A stretch of 50,423 nt of DNA from Bacteroidia bacterium (GCA_013001815.1 JABDLV010000091.1:1-50423); one strand, 5' to 3'; counted from the first letter of the stretch, positions 3,314 through 24,315 are shown. Program-made: numbers and translations. The notes: generated by a model not told the origin, from the letters alone.

Positions 3314-4192
3314 TTAGTCCCAGTTCTTAACTGTACCAAGAGTAGCTTTTTGAACGTTTACGATTTCGCTATTGGTAGCAGAACCACCATCACGATGAAC
3401 AAAAGCAATAATTTTAACTTTAGATGTATCCCATTTTGGAAGTCCTTGGGCGTTTAATGGAATAGCAGTTGAATATACTTTTACATCTTCACCTAAAGCT
3501 ACTTGAGCACTTGCTTCAACTAAATCACCCAAGTTAGCAGATAATACTTTTCTAACGGTATGATTATGCTCAAACCCAACTATAGGATTTCCCATTTGAT
3601 ACCAAGGTGAGCTTGCATCATTATTCATGTAGTTAGACTGGTTGTAAGATCCACCACCGGTAACACCATCTTCAATAACATAAGCTGTAACTCTAAAGTT
3701 ACCAGCAACAGGTGCAGCAAAACCGGTATGAACTTCAACTGATATTACTCCTGCTTCTACTGAAGACTTAATGGCAACACCTGCTAGAGCATTTCCGTTT
3801 AATATTCCTTGTGCAGCATTTTTCCAGGCGCCTCTGCTCATTGGAACAGAACCACCTTGTGCTGTTCTGTTTACCATGCCGGTAGGAAAACCAGTCACAT
3901 TAAATTTTTGGTCCAATTTATCATAGAGAGAAATTTCCATTGGGTCTCCTTGGTGAATGGCAGCGCCATAAACTTGGCCTGGAAACTGTGTCATGGTTTC
4001 ATCTACAATAGTTGCTCCATCTGGGCAGTACCCACACCAACAACCGGTAAATTCTTCAATTAATACTTTTTGAGTAAATGCTGCTGGAACAGGACCTATA
4101 TCGTCACCGCCACCACCACCATTATCATCATCTTTTTTGCAGGATGTAAATGCGATCATTACAGCTGCAGTGAATAATAAGAGTTTTTTCAT
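3314..4192 (-). CDS. Omp28-like thioredoxin-fold outer-membrane lipoprotein (CxxC intact)
   Basis: Lipobox AFTSC. The motif EEFTGCWCGYCPDG has a thioredoxin-like WCxxC. Blocks shared with the neighbouring paralog are GPVP..FTQKVLIE.FT, GMVNR, PIVG..HNH..R.VL and VNVQ.A.L...KNWD. Confidence 0.7.
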   Translation of the reverse strand: MKKLLLFTAAVMIAFTSCKKDDDNGGGGGDDIGPVPAAFTQKVLIEEFTGCWCGYCPDGATIVDETMTQFPGQVYGAAIHQGDPMEISLYDKLDQKFNVTGFPTGMVNRTAQGGSVPMSRGAWKNAAQGILNGNALAGVAIKSSVEAGVISVEVHTGFAAPVAGNFRVTAYVIEDGVTGGGSYNQSNYMNNDASSPWYQMGNPIVGFEHNHTVRKVLSANLGDLVEASAQVALGEDVKVYSTAIPLNAQGLPKWDTSKVKIIAFVHRDGGSATNSEIVNVQKATLGTVKNWD

Positions 4193-4301
4193 TTTTGTTA
4201 TTTGTTAGATTAAGTTTAGTTAATTTATTTCCTTTAAAAGCGATATGAATTTATTGAAAATAAAGCTATTAGGCAAATTGATTGATTTTCAATAGGGTAT
4301 A

Positions 4302-4338
4302 TAAAAAAAGAAAGCCGAATATTGAATATTCGGCTTTC
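4302..4338 (-). terminator. Rho-independent terminator of the upstream Omp28-like paralog
   Basis: GAAAGCCGAATATT (4310-4323) and AATATTCGGCTTTC (4325-4338) are perfect 14-nt inverted arms. On the minus strand they are followed by TTTTTTTA (complement of 4302-4309). Confidence 0.8.
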
Positions 4339-4396
4339 CGGTATTTAAACCAATTCCTGATAATTGCACTCAGGACCCTATGAAGTCATGAGGTTT

Positions 4397-5305
4397 TTAG
4401 TCCCAGTTTTTAAGTGAGTTTAACGGTGCAGTTTGTACGTTTAATACTTTACCAATAGACGAACCTGCAGTATGTTCAGTAATAAATGCAACTACATGTG
4501 TCTTAGCAGGGTCATAACCTGTAATGTTAGCCGTAAAATTAAATGCTTCAGAACCACCTGGAGTCTGCACGTGACTTGTTATTGCATCACCCCACGGAGC
4601 TGTTAAAACATCTCTTAATACATGGTTATGTTTATACCCAACTATTGGGTCACCTAAACTAAAGAATGATGTACGATTGTCTAAGTCAAATGCATTTGCT
4701 TGGTCAAAACCAATACCTGTGCCTGACATGTCATGCTCAATTAAATATACATTAACTGTTAAGTTTGTTGAAATTAAACTTGTAAATCCAACTTGAACAT
4801 CAATGTTTGCTGTATTGCCTAAGCTTCCTGCTCTTATAGCAAGACCACAGCCTGCAAAGTTTTGAGATTCAGAAGCAACCGGAGTATCCCAATCAGTAGG
4901 AGAATAAGAATATGTGCCAGATACAGGCTCAATACTTCTGTTGACCATTCCACCTGGTACTTCATGTGGTAATGTATATAAATCAGTTATTGAACTGTAC
5001 ATACTAGATACCATTGCATCATTTGTATGAATGTTTACACCAATAACATTGCTGTTGGTTGGAAGAACAAACTGATTTAGCTTTTCATGTGCAACAGGAC
5101 TTAATCCTTCATTTGCAGATGTAAAACTTTCAATTAATACTTTTTGTGTAAATCTGTTTGGTACGGGTCCTATGTTTCCTTTAGAACCTGGAGTTGTGAT
5201 TGCTGCTTTACTTCCAGAATTAGTGGGTGTCCACTCTGTTTCTGTTTTTTGACATGCTGTAAATACAACAAATAATAAGCTTAATAATAGCGAGAATTGT
5301 TTCAT
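4397..5305 (-). CDS. Omp28-like lipoprotein paralog lacking the CxxC motif
   Basis: Lipobox VFTAC. It has the same conserved blocks and the same C-terminal LKNWD as 3314-4192, but the CxxC position reads ESFTSANEGLSP. Confidence 0.65.
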   Translation of the reverse strand: MKQFSLLLSLLFVVFTACQKTETEWTPTNSGSKAAITTPGSKGNIGPVPNRFTQKVLIESFTSANEGLSPVAHEKLNQFVLPTNSNVIGVNIHTNDAMVSSMYSSITDLYTLPHEVPGGMVNRSIEPVSGTYSYSPTDWDTPVASESQNFAGCGLAIRAGSLGNTANIDVQVGFTSLISTNLTVNVYLIEHDMSGTGIGFDQANAFDLDNRTSFFSLGDPIVGYKHNHVLRDVLTAPWGDAITSHVQTPGGSEAFNFTANITGYDPAKTHVVAFITEHTAGSSIGKVLNVQTAPLNSLKNWD

Positions 5306-5635
5306 GGTTTAAATAAAATTTGTGGTGACTGAGCACCTGTTCACCACAATTATAACCTCAGTTACATCTCTAAATCTTTTAAAGTGATGCAGATTCTTAC
5401 ATCCTTTCTGTTGGATTATGTGCTATGTATAATTCAGAAAATCAATGAAATAGGTTAGAAAGAGCCTTTATTAACCTCGAAAAATGGAACAAAATGGAAG
5501 ATTTGGCACAATATTCCCTTTGTAAAAAAGTAGTATTTATAGTAACATTTGGTGATTAGCCCTTATAAATTGGCTAATGACTTGATTCATATGCTACACA
5601 GCATTTATCTTTGTATTATCTATTAAATCTAAGTT

Positions 5636-5755
5636 ATGCTCAAATCCCCCTGGAGCACATTTATTAAAACTGCTCTAACAATTATAGTAATAAGTGTAGT
5701 TTACTTTATGGTGTATTTCTTCGTAATGAGATCATTCGAAGGGTTTTCACTATAA
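5636..5755 (+). CDS. Possible unannotated 39-aa single-TM small protein
   Basis: ATG at 5636 and TAA at 5753-5755. Translation is MLKSPWSTFIKTALTIIVISVVYFMVYFFVMRSFEGFSL, with one hydrophobic helix. It lies 48 nt upstream of, and co-oriented with, the NUDIX gene. No homology evidence is available. Confidence 0.3.
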   Translation: MLKSPWSTFIKTALTIIVISVVYFMVYFFVMRSFEGFSL

Positions 5756-5803
5756 TTTTTCTGTAAGCGCCTTTCTATTCTTTAATCATTTATATTCACG
5801 GTT

Positions 5804-6259
5804 ATGAGTAAAAATGATTTCATTATTCGTGTTTATGGCATATATATAAATGCGAATAAGCAACTCTTACTTTCTGATGAAACATATAATGGTATTTCCT
5901 TTACTAAATTCCCGGGTGGCGGATTAGAAAAAGGAGAAGGCGCATTAGATTGCCTAAAGCGCGAGTTTTTAGAAGAAATGGATTTAGAAATAATGATTAA
6001 AGAGCACTTTTATACTACCGATTTTTACCAACCTTCTGCTTTTGATGAAAGCCGACAAGTAATAAGTATTTATTATGTAATCGAGGCAAATGATATAATA
6101 GCCTATGAAAAAATTGCCAATGCAAACGCTACAGACAGCAAAGAGTTAAATTTTAAATGGATTGATTTGAGCAAACTAAATGAATCTCATTTAACTTTTC
6201 CGATTGATAAGAAGGTGGTAGAGCTACTATCTAAAAAGCAACACCAAGGCGGTGTTTAA
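5804..6259 (+). CDS. NUDIX hydrolase (MutT-like, small)
   Basis: Nudix box GGGLEKGEGALDCLKREFLEEMDLEI. Confidence 0.8.
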   Translation: MSKNDFIIRVYGIYINANKQLLLSDETYNGISFTKFPGGGLEKGEGALDCLKREFLEEMDLEIMIKEHFYTTDFYQPSAFDESRQVISIYYVIEANDIIAYEKIANANATDSKELNFKWIDLSKLNESHLTFPIDKKVVELLSKKQHQGGV

Positions 6260-18932: not shown

Positions 18933-19246
18933 AAGTATTTGCTTTATCTGGAGCTTTAGGGATTGAGGTTACTTTGGCCAGATGAAGAAGTGCTATATAT
19001 AATATAACGCATGGTTTAGTTTTTTTATTGGAAAAGTGGTAGACGAGTGCAAGTCACTACCTTATATATTATACGCTTTCGAAAGCTCTGGGGTTCCCGT
19101 ATATAAAGCTGAATGACATAAATTGCTAAATATCAATAGGATACAAGTTATATTGAATTCTTAAATGCGTTATTTTCTGCTAATTTTGCATGCTGTCAAA
19201 GACAGAATATTAATTTTTGTGTTTTGGCGAATGTCCAAAAATTGCA

Positions 19247-20692
19247 ATGGTATTTAGTTCACCCATATTTATTTTTCTATTCTTACCGCTTGTACTTTTA
19301 GTGTACTTTTTGCTGAAAGGAACAGCAAGAAAAAATCTGTGTTTACTTGTATTTAGTTTACTGTTTTATTTCTGGGGAGAAACCTATTTGGTATTACTGA
19401 TGTTGCTTTCCATTGGGTTAAATTATTTTTTCGGAATACAAATTGATAAGCAAAAAGACGGTAAAAGAAAAAAGCAGGTTTTATTAATGGGAGTTGCAAT
19501 TAATCTTCTAATATTAATTTCATTCAAGTATGCCAATTTTATAGTAGATAATTTAAATACAATTTTGGTGCAATTGAGTTTTTCACCAATTCATCTTAAA
19601 TCTATTCACTTACCCATAGGGATTTCATTCTTTACATTTCAAAGCATGTCATATATAATTGATGTGTATAGAAATACCAATAAAGTATCCAGAAGCCTTA
19701 CCAATGTGGCATTATATATCTCTCTATTTCCGCAATTAATTGCGGGGCCTATTGTTCGATATCATGATGTAGCGGGGCAAATTATTGATAGAAATATAAA
19801 AGTTGAATTATTTGCAGCCGGGGCAAAAAGATTTATAATTGGTTTAGCAAAAAAAGTTTTAATTGCTAACACGGTTGCACGGGTGGCAGATCATATTTTT
19901 GATTTGCCAATTGGAGAACATACTATTGCTGTAGCCTGGTTAGGTGCTGTTGCCTATTCATTGCAAATTTATTTTGATTTTTCCGGTTACTCTGATATGG
20001 CGATTGGATTAGGCAACATGTTTGGATTTAAATTTCCTGAAAATTTTAACTACCCATACATTTCTAAATCAATAAAAGAATTTTGGCGCAGATGGCACAT
20101 ATCATTGTCATCATGGTTTAGAGACTACTTATATATTCCACTGGGAGGAAACAGAATAAATGCAAGCAGAACTTATTTTAATCTGATAACCGTTTTCTTT
20201 TTAACCGGTTTGTGGCATGGAGCAAGCTGGAGCTTTGTGGTTTGGGGATTATATCATGGTTTCTTTTTAATCCTTGAAAGAATTGGCTTGGAACGTGCAT
20301 TAAACAAAGTTGGATTTTTTGTTGGCAATGCATATGCATTAGTAGTGGTGATAATTGGTTGGGTATTTTTCAGAGCAGATAACTTTCCATATGCCTGGAG
20401 CTATTTAAAAGCAATGTTTGGATTAGATAATCCGTCAAAAGAGAAATTCAATTTTGCTTATTACATGGATAATGAAATTGCATTAACACTAATTGCAGGT
20501 ATCGTTCTGTCCATGCCCTTATTTTTTAAATTAAAAACATTGAGAGCGAAATTGTTTAATGTTATTCCCGGTACTATATTTCAAATGAGTTTGAATGGCC
20601 TAATTACTGTGTTATACATTGTGTTATTCATTTGGTCTGTAATTTATATTTCAAGTGATACGTACAACCCATTTATTTATTTTAGATTTTAA
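19247..20692 (+). CDS. MBOAT-family membrane O-acyltransferase (AlgI/DltB-like), copy 1
   Basis: Motifs FFTFQSMSYIIDVY, FPQLIAGPIVR, RRWHISLSSWFRDYLYIPLGG and GLWHGASW. ATG 19247 (MVFSSPIFIFLF) is preferred over the TTG at 19217. Confidence 0.85.
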   Translation: MVFSSPIFIFLFLPLVLLVYFLLKGTARKNLCLLVFSLLFYFWGETYLVLLMLLSIGLNYFFGIQIDKQKDGKRKKQVLLMGVAINLLILISFKYANFIVDNLNTILVQLSFSPIHLKSIHLPIGISFFTFQSMSYIIDVYRNTNKVSRSLTNVALYISLFPQLIAGPIVRYHDVAGQIIDRNIKVELFAAGAKRFIIGLAKKVLIANTVARVADHIFDLPIGEHTIAVAWLGAVAYSLQIYFDFSGYSDMAIGLGNMFGFKFPENFNYPYISKSIKEFWRRWHISLSSWFRDYLYIPLGGNRINASRTYFNLITVFFLTGLWHGASWSFVVWGLYHGFFLILERIGLERALNKVGFFVGNAYALVVVIIGWVFFRADNFPYAWSYLKAMFGLDNPSKEKFNFAYYMDNEIALTLIAGIVLSMPLFFKLKTLRAKLFNVIPGTIFQMSLNGLITVLYIVLFIWSVIYISSDTYNPFIYFRF

Positions 20693-21834
20693 TGATGAAT
20701 GTAAAGAACATATTGACTTATGCTTTCGTGGTGCTCTTTATTGCAGTTCTCCTTATCCCCTTGTTGCGTTCATTTAGTTCAGTTAATGATAGCACTGCTT
20801 GGATGGAAAAAAGAGAAGTTGCTGAGTTTCCTTCGTTACAATTCAACAAACTGGATAAATTCCCAAAGCAGTTCAACGCATTTTTTAATGATCATCTAGG
20901 CTTTAGAAAGTATATCATGCTGGCGAATGGCATCATTAAAAATGACTTATTCAATGTAAGTAGTAGACCTGATAAGGTAATTAAGGGAAAAGATGGTTGG
21001 TTGTATTTGGCACGAGACGATTTTAATGAAGATTATTATATGAACGTGAATCCTTTCACAGAAAATAATTTGAATGCAGTTTGTGAAGAGATACAAAGGA
21101 GAAAAGACATTTTAGCTGAACTAAATATAGAATACTATCTGTTTATGCTACCAAGTAAACATCACGTATACCCTGAAAATTTACCCGATAATATTAATCA
21201 ACTTGATACCATAAGTAGATTGGATCAATTTATGAATCACATGCAAAGCGATTACAATGTGAATGTGATAAATACTCTAGATACCGTAATTCAAACGAAA
21301 TCAGATACAGCCTATTTTTATGATAAGGATACCCATTGGAATTTACATGGTGCAGCATTCGTTTACACAGTTATGATGGATGAGTTGAAAAAGAGATATT
21401 CCGATTTGAATATTCTGAACTGTATGAGTTGGGAAAGAAAAACTACTGTAATTGAACATCAAGGGGATTTGTCTTTATTAATGGGCAGGTACGATTATAA
21501 AATGAAGAATAATGTGGTAACTGTTCCTCCGTCAGATTTTAAAGTGAATTATGAAAGTGTTGCAGTTGGAGAACTTCCTGAAAAAGATAAATTCTTGGCA
21601 GCACCAGAGCGGTTTGTGTCCAATGATTCGCTCGCACCAAAAGTTGTGGTGATGCATGATTCTTTTGCTACATTGCTAAAGAAATTTATGGCAACGGGTT
21701 TTTCAGAATCATTGTTTGTATGGACACACGAGTTTACACCGGAAATTATTGAACAAGAGAAACCTCAAATAGTAATTGAACTGATGGCCGAACGATTTTT
21801 AACTCAATTGCAAGAAAAAGAAATAGAAAAATAA
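20692..21834 (+). CDS. AlgJ/AlgX-like SGNH-type periplasmic O-acyltransferase partner (N-terminal TM anchor), copy 1
   Basis: Motifs EFP...FNAFFNDHLGFR, KDGWLYL, LPSKHHVYPENLP and DKDTHWNLHGA, then VVVMHDSF...IVIELMAERF near the C-terminus. The start overlaps the MBOAT stop (TAATG). Confidence 0.65.
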   Translation: MMNVKNILTYAFVVLFIAVLLIPLLRSFSSVNDSTAWMEKREVAEFPSLQFNKLDKFPKQFNAFFNDHLGFRKYIMLANGIIKNDLFNVSSRPDKVIKGKDGWLYLARDDFNEDYYMNVNPFTENNLNAVCEEIQRRKDILAELNIEYYLFMLPSKHHVYPENLPDNINQLDTISRLDQFMNHMQSDYNVNVINTLDTVIQTKSDTAYFYDKDTHWNLHGAAFVYTVMMDELKKRYSDLNILNCMSWERKTTVIEHQGDLSLLMGRYDYKMKNNVVTVPPSDFKVNYESVAVGELPEKDKFLAAPERFVSNDSLAPKVVVMHDSFATLLKKFMATGFSESLFVWTHEFTPEIIEQEKPQIVIELMAERFLTQLQEKEIEK

Positions 21835-21835
21835 C

Positions 21836-23287
21836 ATGCTCTTTAATTCATTTGAGTTTTTTATTTTTTTTCCAATTGTAATTTGGATTTATTTCATTAC
21901 TCCTTCAAAGTATAGGTGGGTATGGCTGTTATCTGTCAGCTACTATTTTTATATGTGCTGGAAGTCTGCCTACATTATATTGATAGCCACATCAACATTG
22001 GTAGATTACTTCGCAGGAATCTATATTCATCAATCGAAAACAAAAAGTAGGCGAAAGCTGCTTTTGTACTTGAGTCTATTTGTAAACCTTGGTTTATTAT
22101 TTGTTTTTAAGTATTTAGATTTCTTTAATGATACCATTGGTTCTGTATTTAATCAGTTCAATATATTTTATGATGTGCCAGCGTATAATTTTTTATTACC
22201 CGTTGGGATATCATTCTACACATTTCAAACTTTAAGTTATACCATTGATGTATATAAAGGCAGAATAGAACCTGAAAGACATTTAGGACGTTTTGCTTTA
22301 TATGTTTCATTTTTCCCGCAGTTGGTAGCTGGTCCAATTGAGCGAGCAACAAGATTATTACCTCAATTTAAAAAGGTGCATACATTCGATTACAATAGAG
22401 TGAAAAATGGCTTGCTCTTAATTTTGTGGGGACTGTTTAAAAAAGTGGTAATAGCAGATAGGGTTTCGGAATATGTAAATACGGTGTATAATAATCCGGG
22501 AATGTATTCAGGTTTGCAAAGTATTCTTGCAACCTACTTTTTTGCCTTTCAGATCTACTGTGACTTCTCCGGGTATTCTGACATTGCCATTGGAGCTGCA
22601 TTGGTATTGGGTTATGAGTTAATTGTAAATTTTAAACGTCCCTATTTTTCAAGAACATTTAAAGAAGTATTCAATCGCTGGCATATTTCACTTTACAATT
22701 GGTTTAGAGATTACGTATATGTTCCACTAGGGCTCAAGTTTCGGTCTAAATTTTTTAGACAGGCAATATTAGTATTGGTGTTTTTACTTACCGGTTTATG
22801 GCATGGTGCAGAATGGACATTTGTTTTGTGGGGTGGATTGTGTGCCCTCATTATTGTACTTGGAACGCTCACACAAAAATTAAGAAATAATTTATTTGAT
22901 AGAGCAGGAATTAAACGCAGTAATAAATTTAGAATTATATATGATGTAGTCATTACATTCCATTTTTGCTTTTTAGTATTCATCATGTTTAGAGCACAAT
23001 CCGTATCTCATTTTGTAGATATGGTTGCAAGTATGTTTCATATTGATTTTGCATCTCAATTCACAAACATAAATTTATTCTTAGTGCCGGCAGATATGGC
23101 AATTGGTGTGGTGAGTATTTTGTTTCTATTAGGAATTGAATTATTGCAGGAGAAATATGGTTCTAAGAAACTATTTTATTCCATGGTGCCAAGATGGGGT
23201 AGGTGGACATTTGTAGGAATGATTATAATGAGCATTATACTATTTGGAAAATTTGATAATGTTGACTTTTTATATTTTCAATTTTAG
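21836..23287 (+). CDS. MBOAT-family membrane O-acyltransferase, copy 2
   Basis: Motifs MLFNSFEFFIFF, FYTFQTLSYTIDVY, FPQLVAGPIER, NRWHISLYNWFRDYVYVPLG and GLWHGAEW. It starts 1 nt after the upstream stop. Confidence 0.85.
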   Translation: MLFNSFEFFIFFPIVIWIYFITPSKYRWVWLLSVSYYFYMCWKSAYIILIATSTLVDYFAGIYIHQSKTKSRRKLLLYLSLFVNLGLLFVFKYLDFFNDTIGSVFNQFNIFYDVPAYNFLLPVGISFYTFQTLSYTIDVYKGRIEPERHLGRFALYVSFFPQLVAGPIERATRLLPQFKKVHTFDYNRVKNGLLLILWGLFKKVVIADRVSEYVNTVYNNPGMYSGLQSILATYFFAFQIYCDFSGYSDIAIGAALVLGYELIVNFKRPYFSRTFKEVFNRWHISLYNWFRDYVYVPLGLKFRSKFFRQAILVLVFLLTGLWHGAEWTFVLWGGLCALIIVLGTLTQKLRNNLFDRAGIKRSNKFRIIYDVVITFHFCFLVFIMFRAQSVSHFVDMVASMFHIDFASQFTNINLFLVPADMAIGVVSILFLLGIELLQEKYGSKKLFYSMVPRWGRWTFVGMIIMSIILFGKFDNVDFLYFQF

Positions 23288-23289
23288 TG

Positions 23290-24315
23290 ATGAAGGAAAA
23301 AGGACTTAAATATGGAATATATGCTGCAGGTGTTGCTTGCTTGCTGATATTTGTATTGGTGCGTTTAACAAATGTTCCTGCATCGCTGGTTGTAGACTTA
23401 GACAATACAGGTGATTTGTACAGGCAGAACTATATTGATTTGTTTAAAGAGGAATTGCCAGCAAAATCCATTGCGTTTAATCAGTCACCTAAACACGCCT
23501 CTATAGATGACGCAGAGATATTAATTTTTGGTGATTCATTCTTTAATTTTAGAAGGCATAAGTCGGTGCCGGAGTATGTTGCAGACAGTTTAAATAAAAA
23601 AGTATTTTTTCACAAGGACTATAGTGTAAAGGATGTGCTTGCGGGTGCTAATTTTGATGGAGATAATAAAAAGCTGTTGATTTTTGAATTAGCCGAAAGA
23701 GGTATTACCATAAAATTTGGGCCTGATATAGTTGAATCTAAAAAGTTTGAGTTTGATTTGTTTACGCAATTGGATACAACCTTCTTTTCAGAAAAATATA
23801 ATAAGCGTTATCGATATTTATTGGAAAGAAGTAAACTGTCACACAACGTTTATTCCTCTTTAAATACTTTTAATTTTAATGCGTTTAAAAGCATTAGCAG
23901 CTTCACTCCCGTGTATACAAAAGAACCGGCTTGTCTGTTTTATGGTAAGACAGTGAATAATAAACCCGGGAGTTATAATTTTAATTATTCGCCTGCACTT
24001 ATAAATTTTTATTCTGATAATATATTGGATTGGAAGAATGAAATAGAACAAAAGTATAATGTAGAAGTACTGTTTTATTTCATTCCTAATAAGTCTTCTG
24101 TTTATCACGAGAAAATTAGCAATGAAGGGTACAATAATTTTCTTCCTAGGTTAAGCACTGCGCTTAATGCAAGAGGGGTGAAGCACATAAGCATGTATGA
24201 AGAGTTTGAGGCTGCTGAAGAAATATTATACTACCCTACAGATACTCATTGGAATGATGCCGGAACTAAAATGGGAGCAGAAAAACTTATTAAATATTTA
24301 AGAACGAATAATTAG
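23290..24315 (+). CDS. SGNH/DHHW-type O-acyltransferase partner, copy 2 (motif order permuted relative to copy 1)
   Basis: N-terminal TM anchor. ILIFGDSF...LLIFELAERG lies near the N-terminus, followed by FYFIPNKSSVYHE and YYPTDTHWNDAG near the C-terminus. The start is ATG 23290 (or GTG 23287, which overlaps the MBOAT stop). Confidence 0.55.
   Translation: MKEKGLKYGIYAAGVACLLIFVLVRLTNVPASLVVDLDNTGDLYRQNYIDLFKEELPAKSIAFNQSPKHASIDDAEILIFGDSFFNFRRHKSVPEYVADSLNKKVFFHKDYSVKDVLAGANFDGDNKKLLIFELAERGITIKFGPDIVESKKFEFDLFTQLDTTFFSEKYNKRYRYLLERSKLSHNVYSSLNTFNFNAFKSISSFTPVYTKEPACLFYGKTVNNKPGSYNFNYSPALINFYSDNILDWKNEIEQKYNVEVLFYFIPNKSSVYHEKISNEGYNNFLPRLSTALNARGVKHISMYEEFEAAEEILYYPTDTHWNDAGTKMGAEKLIKYLRTNN

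Follow-up and report, generated by a model that had tools for sequence, protein, structure and literature searches.

Do two proteins encoded almost side by side contain one and the same catalytic domain with its halves joined in opposite order? The question was raised by a stretch of 50,423 nt from a Bacteroidia bacterium (GCA_013001815.1 JABDLV010000091.1:1-50423; hereafter the window), in which we studied the region within 19217-24315. Four closely spaced genes are present there, all on the + strand: one for a membrane protein of the MBOAT family (MBOAT 1), one for its partner (partner 1, P1), and then a second MBOAT gene (MBOAT 2) followed by a second partner gene (partner 2, P2). An earlier note, based on the sequence alone, had proposed that P1 and P2 are circular permutants of one another, P1 having the order of AlgX and AlgJ and P2 that of canonical SGNH hydrolases.

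Enzymes of the AlgX, AlgJ and PatB1 kind acetylate alginate, cellulose and cell-wall polysaccharides and represent the textbook circularly permuted SGNH fold. Compared with the canonical S-G-N-H order of blocks, AlgJ and AlgX have H-S-G-Y, with DxH for DxxH and Tyr for the Block III Asn (PMC4148444). PatB1 and the DHHW proteins are likewise permuted, and a DxRY motif supplies an arginine of the oxyanion hole (PMC9487903). That the AlgX clade is permuted with respect to canonical SGNH enzymes is already published and not new (PMC4148444, PMC9487903).

The analysis of the two proteins located all eight proposed motifs at the residues claimed: LPSKHHVYPE (153), DTHW (213), VVVMHDSF (318) and IVIELMAERF (360) in P1, and ILIFGDSF (78), LLIFELAERG (130), FIPNKSSVYHE (265) and DTHW (319) in P2. 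Two further shared motifs, which had not been mentioned before, follow the same circular order, namely GDL (P1 258-260, P2 42-44) and a hairpin with WLY in P1 (103-105) or LFY in P2 (217-219). The motifs are thus read as WLY-PxK-DTHW-GDL-DSF-ER in P1 and GDL-DSF-ER-LFY-PxK-DTHW in P2. The distance from PxK to DTHW, said to be 52-55 aa in both proteins, is 52 in P2 and 59 in P1, a small departure from the range claimed.

Plain BLASTP detected only the region of PxK and DTHW (P1 137-221 with P2 250-327, E 8e-4). When family profiles were compared with hhalign, P2 181-340 aligned with P1 68-234 (probability 99.6%, E 6e-25, 157 columns) and P2 38-142 with P1 254-372 (probability 97.0%, E 1.2e-10, 93 columns). 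These regions are referred to below as block A and block B, P1 having the order A-B and P2 the order B-A. The second alignment answers the comparison of the DSF and ELxAER segments that the earlier note had called for: they are significantly similar. Two same-order controls failed (probability 0.1%, E 0.4-0.5). Aligning a full profile with the profile of the partner written twice is the classical sequence test for circular permutation. In this test P2 10-342 and a doubled P1 profile (217-380 followed by 1-236) formed one collinear alignment, 318 columns long (probability 99.7%, E 9.2e-26); a forced same-order alignment of the full-length proteins had a probability of 1.1%. A first pass with shallow alignments had agreed with the swapped-order result. 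Identity between P1 and P2 in the aligned blocks is about 17-19%.

Structures of both proteins were predicted with AlphaFold2 without templates. The predicted local distance difference test score (pLDDT) was 82 for P1 and 84 for P2 and the predicted template modelling score 0.79 and 0.80, respectively; around the motif strands pLDDT exceeded 90 in both, and it was below 50 in residues 149-163 of the P2 linker. The modelled chains contain the same strands (E) and helices (H) in circularly shifted order. P1 E317-322/H324-336/E339-344/H350-356/E360-366 correspond to P2 E78-82/H94-102/E106-110/H114-120/E129-136, and P1 H72-86/hairpin/H124-143/E147-153/H176-187/E191-194/H218-233 to P2 H183-200/hairpin/H236-257/E259-266/H285-295/E300-302/H324-341. 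Foldseek, which aligns in sequence order, matched the P1 model only with PatB1, AlgJ, the DHHW protein 4nzk and AlgX (E 6e-11 to 1.6e-7), canonical SGNH structures being absent from its matches. The P2 model was matched only with canonical-order GDSL/SGNH hydrolases (1z8h, 4h08, 7ddy and TesA 1ivn; probability 0.96-0.99, TM-score 0.5-0.6 by target, about 285 columns), and AlgX, AlgJ and PatB1 were not among its best 50 matches. Such a division, with P1 finding only permuted-order structures and P2 only canonical-order ones, is what two permutants of one fold would be expected to show. Overall, the swapped-order profile homology, the doubled-profile alignment and the agreement of the folds confirm that the permutation between P1 and P2 is real and well beyond chance, and that the order ascribed to each protein had been recognized correctly. 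Nothing that the earlier note had named as refuting its proposal was observed in these comparisons.

P1 is an ordinary enzyme of AlgX/DHHW order. Its residues 96-268 match positions 1-166 of the Pfam ALGX profile (PF16822) with 79.6 bits (cut-off 26.5), and DTHW (213-216) precedes DSF (323-325), the H-S-G-N order, collinear with PatB1 and AlgJ. The best match to P1 in both structure and sequence was Bacillus cereus PatB1 of the DHHW family (PF14286; 5v8d/5v8e, 4nzk; secondary cell-wall polysaccharide O-acetyltransferases), which has the same permuted order, KDSF in Block I and DxRY with the oxyanion-hole Arg. The P1 family profile was collinear with PatB1 (E 8e-33) across the DHHW and KDSF catalytic motifs. 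DTHW was placed on DHHW and DSF on KDSF, and therefore D213, H215 and S324 on D200, H202 and S337 of PatB1, a triad backed by mutagenesis (PMC9487903). P1 differs in having DTHW and not DHHW, and the DHHW model itself does not match it. With AlgJ and AlgX (PF16822; 4o8v, 4knc, 7ula; acting with the MBOAT AlgI) P1 shares not only the H-S-G-N order but also DTHW, GDL and, following the last strand, a motif of ER(Y) type; like them it is encoded beside an MBOAT. P154, K156, D213, H215, W216, D323 and S324 do not vary among 16 P1 relatives, and conservation of R368 is 90% or higher.

P2 does not have the permuted order: GDSF (82-85) lies ahead of DTHW (319-322). Ser comes first, in an N-terminal GDS(L) Block I, and Asp and His last, as in the canonical S-G-N-H enzymes (E. 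coli TesA/TAP 1ivn, Nostoc Alr1529 1z8h, acetyl xylan esterase 7ddy). Unlike these, P2 has E137-R138-G139 and not GxND in Block III, and in Block V the single-spacer DxH of the AlgX/AlgJ family (D319-T-H321) and not DxxH; in addition, a helical linker and a hairpin are inserted, a GDL segment is present in the N-terminal part, and the protein is membrane-anchored and coupled to an MBOAT. None of the Pfam GDSL models matched P2 of the window at E <= 1. The ALGX profile did (37.8 bits, cut-off 26.5) in residues 248-340 only, from profile position 34 to 132 of 268 and reaching the C-terminus; as the halves of P2 are in opposite order, this model can span only its C-terminal 95 residues. NCBIfam gave nothing for P2, and the source annotations are hypothetical proteins. 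DltD (PF04914), the partner of the MBOAT DltB, resembles P2 in its N-terminal anchor, in having Ser first and His last and in the location of its gene beside that of an MBOAT. However, a relation in sequence was undetectable with PF04914 at E <= 1, and DltD structures were absent from the best 50 Foldseek matches of P2.

The relation of P2 to AlgJ became clear when a profile of 136 P2-family sequences was aligned by HMMER with P. putida AlgJ (4o8v): two domains were found in swapped order (E 1.8e-16). Positions 220-347 of the profile fell on residues 15-141 of the AlgJ chain, including TDTHW, so that P2 D319/H321 lie on AlgJ D190/H192. Positions 79-149 fell on residues 212-285, with the Ser column of GDSF (P2 S84) on S288 of GTSYS and ER on PERY (Y348). 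D190/H192 and S288 are among the catalytic residues of AlgJ (PMC4148444). AlgX (7ula) was likewise matched in swapped order; PatB1, whose order is also opposite to that of P2, was matched through block A only (E 2e-5). Both halves of P2 are therefore homologous to AlgJ and carry the same DxH, PxK, GDL and ER motifs, also next to an MBOAT, but they are joined in canonical order, opposite to that of AlgJ. Ser324/His215/Asp213 are predicted to form the triad of P1 and Ser84/His321/Asp319 that of P2. Since the P1 residues lie on the PatB1 triad and the P2 residues on that of AlgJ, the two would be equivalent by transitive alignment, as had been suggested; their assembly in space and catalytic activity are predicted from sequence.

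To establish whether P2 is a single unusual protein we made an exhaustive profile search with relatives clustered at 50% identity. It returned at least 216 P2-type clusters at E <= 1e-30 and 963 at E <= 1e-10, and almost all of the best 150 relatives matched full-length and collinearly. Among 175 collected proteins 151 had the order B-A, 19 had A-B and five were fragments with A only; duplication intermediates (A-B-A or B-A-B) were sought among them and not found. In 137 P2-type sequences, most of which share at most 50% identity, G82, D83 and S84 are 98-99% conserved, E137 98%, R138 89%, P267 100%, K269 91%, D319 97% and H321 99%. Nearly all members (134 of 136) match Pfam ALGX through the C-terminal part; Lipase_GDSL is weakly matched by ten and Lipase_GDSL_2 by six. 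When one genome per species was scanned with a pattern, P2-type loci were located in 63 species genomes: 53 of Bacteroidota (mostly Bacteroidales), five of Ignavibacteriota, one each of Spirochaetota, Chloroflexota and Thermodesulfobacteriota, and two unplaced. At 47 of the 63 loci, and in the window itself, a gene for an MBOAT of 440 aa or more lies upstream and ends no further than 150 bp away, which shows that P2-type proteins are genuine MBOAT partners. Full-text searches of the literature yielded no description of an AlgX-like family in unpermuted order. The P2 type is thus a sizeable conserved family with AlgX-type motifs in canonical order, mainly of Bacteroidota and Ignavibacteriota, for which we found no published description.

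Taken together, the data make it very probable that the window contains two independent modules for O-acyl transfer, each consisting of an MBOAT and an SGNH-like partner, that the partners are homologous over essentially the whole catalytic domain with its halves in opposite order, and that P2 belongs to a conserved MBOAT-linked family. Several observations weigh against this interpretation. The P2 model was built on an alignment of eight sequences, and its Foldseek matches to canonical SGNH structures have modest E-values (5e-3 and weaker). The Block III Tyr (AlgJ Y348, AlgX Y328) is found in neither partner: P1 has Phe369 after E367-R368 (family consensus ExxERxL, with Arg conserved as in DxRY of PatB1) and P2 has Gly139. 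The oxyanion hole can for this reason be assigned by analogy only. As both partners lack the Tyr and both keep the Arg of the ER motif, a PatB1-like arrangement is the likeliest, with Arg368 of P1 and Arg138 of P2 as the candidate residues (compare PatB1 Arg359). The two also differ from AlgJ and AlgX in Block I, which is xDSF or GDSF and not GTSYS, and in having no carbohydrate-binding module.

P2 could in principle be an ordinary canonical GDSL/SGNH hydrolase in which a few short motifs have converged on those of AlgX, and its classical GDS Block I, the canonical hydrolases matched by its model and the ten family members with a weak Lipase_GDSL match could all be read in this way. We regard this as very improbable, since the homology to AlgX-type halves extends over 93 and 157 columns, well beyond the motifs, and HMMER places both halves on the solved AlgJ. 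Moreover, P2 has the DxH spacing that is specific to AlgX, together with the PxK, GDL and ER motifs, and ALGX is matched almost throughout the family while P2 of the window has no GDSL match. Still less credible is an artefact of assembly or gene calling, such as a rearranged or chimeric contig. The source is indeed a fragmented metagenome-assembled genome (MAG; 2.7 Mb, 266 contigs, 88% complete, 6.4% contamination), but the B-A architecture recurs in 151 independent proteins and in 63 species genomes with the same gene pair and the same conserved residues.

The other alternative concerns not the permutation but the independence of the modules: P1 and P2 might act serially on one acyl group. 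Alginate acetylation, which uses the two SGNH-like proteins AlgJ and AlgX with the MBOAT AlgI, has been proposed to proceed in this way, AlgJ acting before AlgX (PMC4148444, PMC9487903), and the close packing of the four genes on one strand would suit such a pathway. Nevertheless, each partner has an MBOAT of its own, joined to it by an overlapping stop/start junction, the MBOATs co-diverge with partner type, and most P2-type loci consist of a single MBOAT-P2 pair with no P1-type gene within 6 kb. Serial action is accordingly unlikely in our estimate, and we prefer two independent modules.

The coordinates of the genes and their parts are collected in Table 1. Stop and start codons overlap at both MBOAT-partner junctions (20685-20700 and 23280-23296) in nearly identical words, TTTTAATGATGAA and TTTTAGTGATGAA, which suggests translational coupling in both modules. 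The two MBOATs are 35% identical; both resemble DltB with scores under the curated NCBIfam cut-off. P1 and P2 are the sole ALGX matches in the source MAG. Downstream, on the opposite strand and beyond, are genes for a double family 2 glycosyltransferase (GT2), a GT2 fusion, an ATP-binding cassette (ABC) ATPase, an ABC-2 permease, a GT2, a GT4 and a protein of the Wzy_C/O-antigen-ligase family. With glycosyltransferases, an ABC exporter and Wzy_C as its neighbours, the operon adjoins a locus of polysaccharide synthesis and export.

Table 1. Genes of the two MBOAT-partner modules and parts of the partner proteins (window coordinates)
Feature	Coordinates	Strand	Description
MBOAT 1	19217..20692	+	491 aa; membrane acyl-translocating partner of P1; Pfam MBOAT E 5e-30
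Partner 1 (P1)	20692..21834	+	380 aa; transmembrane-anchored SGNH-like acyltransferase of AlgX/AlgJ/DHHW order (A then B); Pfam ALGX 79.6 bits
P1 N-terminal membrane anchor	20713..20775	+	LTYAFVVLFIAVLLIPLLRSF; hydrophobic helix, modelled H4-28
P1 block A (residues 68-234)	20893..21393	+	juxtamembrane helix; WLY hairpin; PSK strand 21151-21159; Block V DTHW 21328-21339 and its helix
P1 block B (residues 254-372)	21451..21807	+	GDL 21463-21471; Block I VVVMHDSF with Ser324 21643-21666; IVIELMAERF with Arg368 21769-21798
MBOAT 2	21836..23287	+	483 aa; membrane acyl-translocating partner of P2; Pfam MBOAT E 2e-26
Partner 2 (P2)	23287..24315	+	342 aa; transmembrane-anchored AlgX-like enzyme of canonical SGNH order (B then A)
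P2 N-terminal membrane anchor	23314..23370	+	GIYAAGVACLLIFVLVRLT; hydrophobic helix, modelled H2-26
P2 block B (residues 38-142)	23398..23712	+	GDL 23410-23418; Block I ILIFGDSF with Ser84 23518-23541; LLIFELAERG with Arg138 23674-23703
P2 linker, block B to block A (residues 143-180)	23713..23826	+	poorly conserved; corresponds to the P1 chain ends
P2 block A (residues 181-340)	23827..24306	+	helix; LFY hairpin; FIPNKSSVYHE 24079-24111; Block V DTHW 24241-24252; terminal helix

The earlier note had seen in the two adjacent genes an evolutionary snapshot. The data do not support a local event, given the low identity of the partners and of the MBOATs and the grouping of each module with its own family from other phyla. 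In a tree of the MBOATs of 59 pairs partner type is accounted for by one change, with a Shimodaira-Hasegawa-like approximate likelihood ratio test (SH-aLRT) value of 99, and none of 500 shuffles was as low. MBOAT 1 falls among the MBOATs that accompany P1-type partners in Planctomycetota, Bacillota, Thermodesulfobacteriota and Bacteroidota, and MBOAT 2 among those that accompany P2-type partners in Bacteroidota. The two kinds of MBOAT-partner pair are ancient co-evolving units, and the window holds one of each and not the products of a local duplication. A relative at about 60% identity (L079) appears to keep both modules; there a gene for a class I methyltransferase (L079:4629-5378) lies between the P1-type gene and the next open reading frame (ORF), where the window has no gene. 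In the closest relatives the contigs do not extend far enough to display the four-gene cassette, and two of them (L077, L078) end just upstream of P2.

Which of the two orders came first can be argued both ways, and at present we hold an ancestral order in P2 and a secondary re-permutation in it to be at roughly even odds. An ancestral order requires only one permutation and would account for GDS being common to P2 and the canonical enzymes. It is also favoured by the combination of motifs in a 393-aa protein of canonical order from a Candidatus Omnitrophota MAG (L068:5152-6330), in which Block I is LIGDSF, Block III a canonical-looking FFEGNDL and Block V an AlgX-type YYPTDTHWN. This protein matches ALGX (E 1.2e-12) and, weakly but from end to end, Lipase_GDSL (E 0.019), and its sequence may connect canonical SGNH hydrolases with the AlgX clade. 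A search of its locus with the MBOAT profile found none. Re-permutation is favoured by the narrow taxonomic range of the P2 type against the many phyla with the A-B type, and by tree placement. In a tree of 78 sequences, built from blocks A+B after de-permutation, P2-type proteins form one clan (SH-aLRT 95) beside an A-B protein of Fibrobacterota. When the tree is rooted on L068 the clan lies inside the A-B diversity; its backbone is unsupported, and L068 and L070 have very long branches. The Gly of GDS was considered as a marker of canonical order and rejected, as L070, of A-B order, also has FGDSF. A fuller scenario, in which the P2-type family is the surviving non-permuted clade of AlgX/DHHW enzymes, has in our opinion somewhat less than an even chance. 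According to it, DxH, PxK, GDL, ER, the hairpin insert and the partnership with an MBOAT would have been gained before a single permutation gave rise to all enzymes of the AlgX/AlgJ/DHHW/PatB1 type, L068 representing an earlier stage.

A number of variations were observed within the P2-type family. Three members of 464-485 aa (P0096, P0100 and P0153) are lengthened by about 150-170 aa inserted precisely at the B-A linker, the site equivalent to where A-B proteins have their chain ends; the added segment contains motifs such as LEGWxAD...RPDV...SGW. Pfam did not assign this insert. Homology of the insert to the additional C-terminal domains that long P1-type proteins carry (A-B-CBM giving B-CBM-A, where CBM is a carbohydrate-binding module) was considered and rejected (hhalign probability 0.9%, phmmer nothing). 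Two loci (L031:5986-8224 and L035:5959-8223) have two tandem P2-type genes behind one MBOAT, an arrangement that recalls AlgJ and AlgX behind AlgI. In three Bacteroidales loci (L020, L027 and L029, about 4100-6000) two genes of approximately 230-350 aa each are located between the MBOAT and the P2-type gene, indicating that the pair is sometimes non-contiguous; the first of them, judged by eye, resembles a GT2-type glycosyltransferase. P2-type genes from long-read MAGs are split into two ORFs near the B-A linker or inside block B in four cases (L052, L053, L062 and L063), most likely by frameshift errors and not as natural split genes.

At four loci an anchored protein of about 320 aa is encoded after a second MBOAT, upstream of the MBOAT and P2-type pair (L012:3515-4486, L016:3533-4540, L029:2948-4024 and L047:3336-4373). 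It has the motifs PRxIFxGGSNLSFG at the N-terminus and FFNTxYHLxKKG at the C-terminus, with L047 divergent (YGSS...FYNASHLNKTG). It matched neither Pfam at the 0.001 level nor the P1 or P2 profiles, and is probably a third family of MBOAT partners, of canonical order.

Both pairs in the window have the composition of the two-component systems of the AlgI/AlgJ, PatA/PatB and DltB/DltD type, namely an MBOAT and an extracytoplasmic SGNH-like partner with an N-terminal anchor, and from homology to these systems we infer the mechanism of acyl transfer. Each MBOAT would pass an acyl group, most likely acetyl, across the inner membrane. The periplasmic partner, held by one N-terminal helix, would take it on the predicted serine, S324 in P1 or S84 in P2, assisted by the Asp-His pair (D213/H215 or D319/H321), and deliver it to a hydroxyl of a polysaccharide from the adjacent glycosyltransferase/ABC-exporter locus. 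The cap is the largest difference between the partners: in P1 it is a strand-rich segment of about 80 residues from the Block V helix to Block I, and in P2 an N-terminal remnant of about 40 residues together with the helical linker. Judging from the models, the differing caps make different acceptor sites for P1 and P2 plausible.

For annotation, an ALGX match restricted to the C-terminal ~100 residues of a protein of about 350 aa indicates a member of the P2-type family and not a fragment. To our knowledge, the permutation of the AlgX clade has until now been inferred only from structure, with almost no sequence shared with canonical SGNH hydrolases. The P2-type family provides a bridge at the level of sequence, combining the AlgX signature with canonical order and including some members that weakly match GDSL models from end to end, and with it the origin of the permutation becomes testable. 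It is also an additional kind of MBOAT partner, common in Bacteroidota. These points are of interest mainly for the fields of SGNH evolution and polysaccharide O-acylation, and the window, with both kinds in one operon of one host, offers a natural matched pair for asking if chain topology affects the choice of acceptor or docking to the MBOAT.

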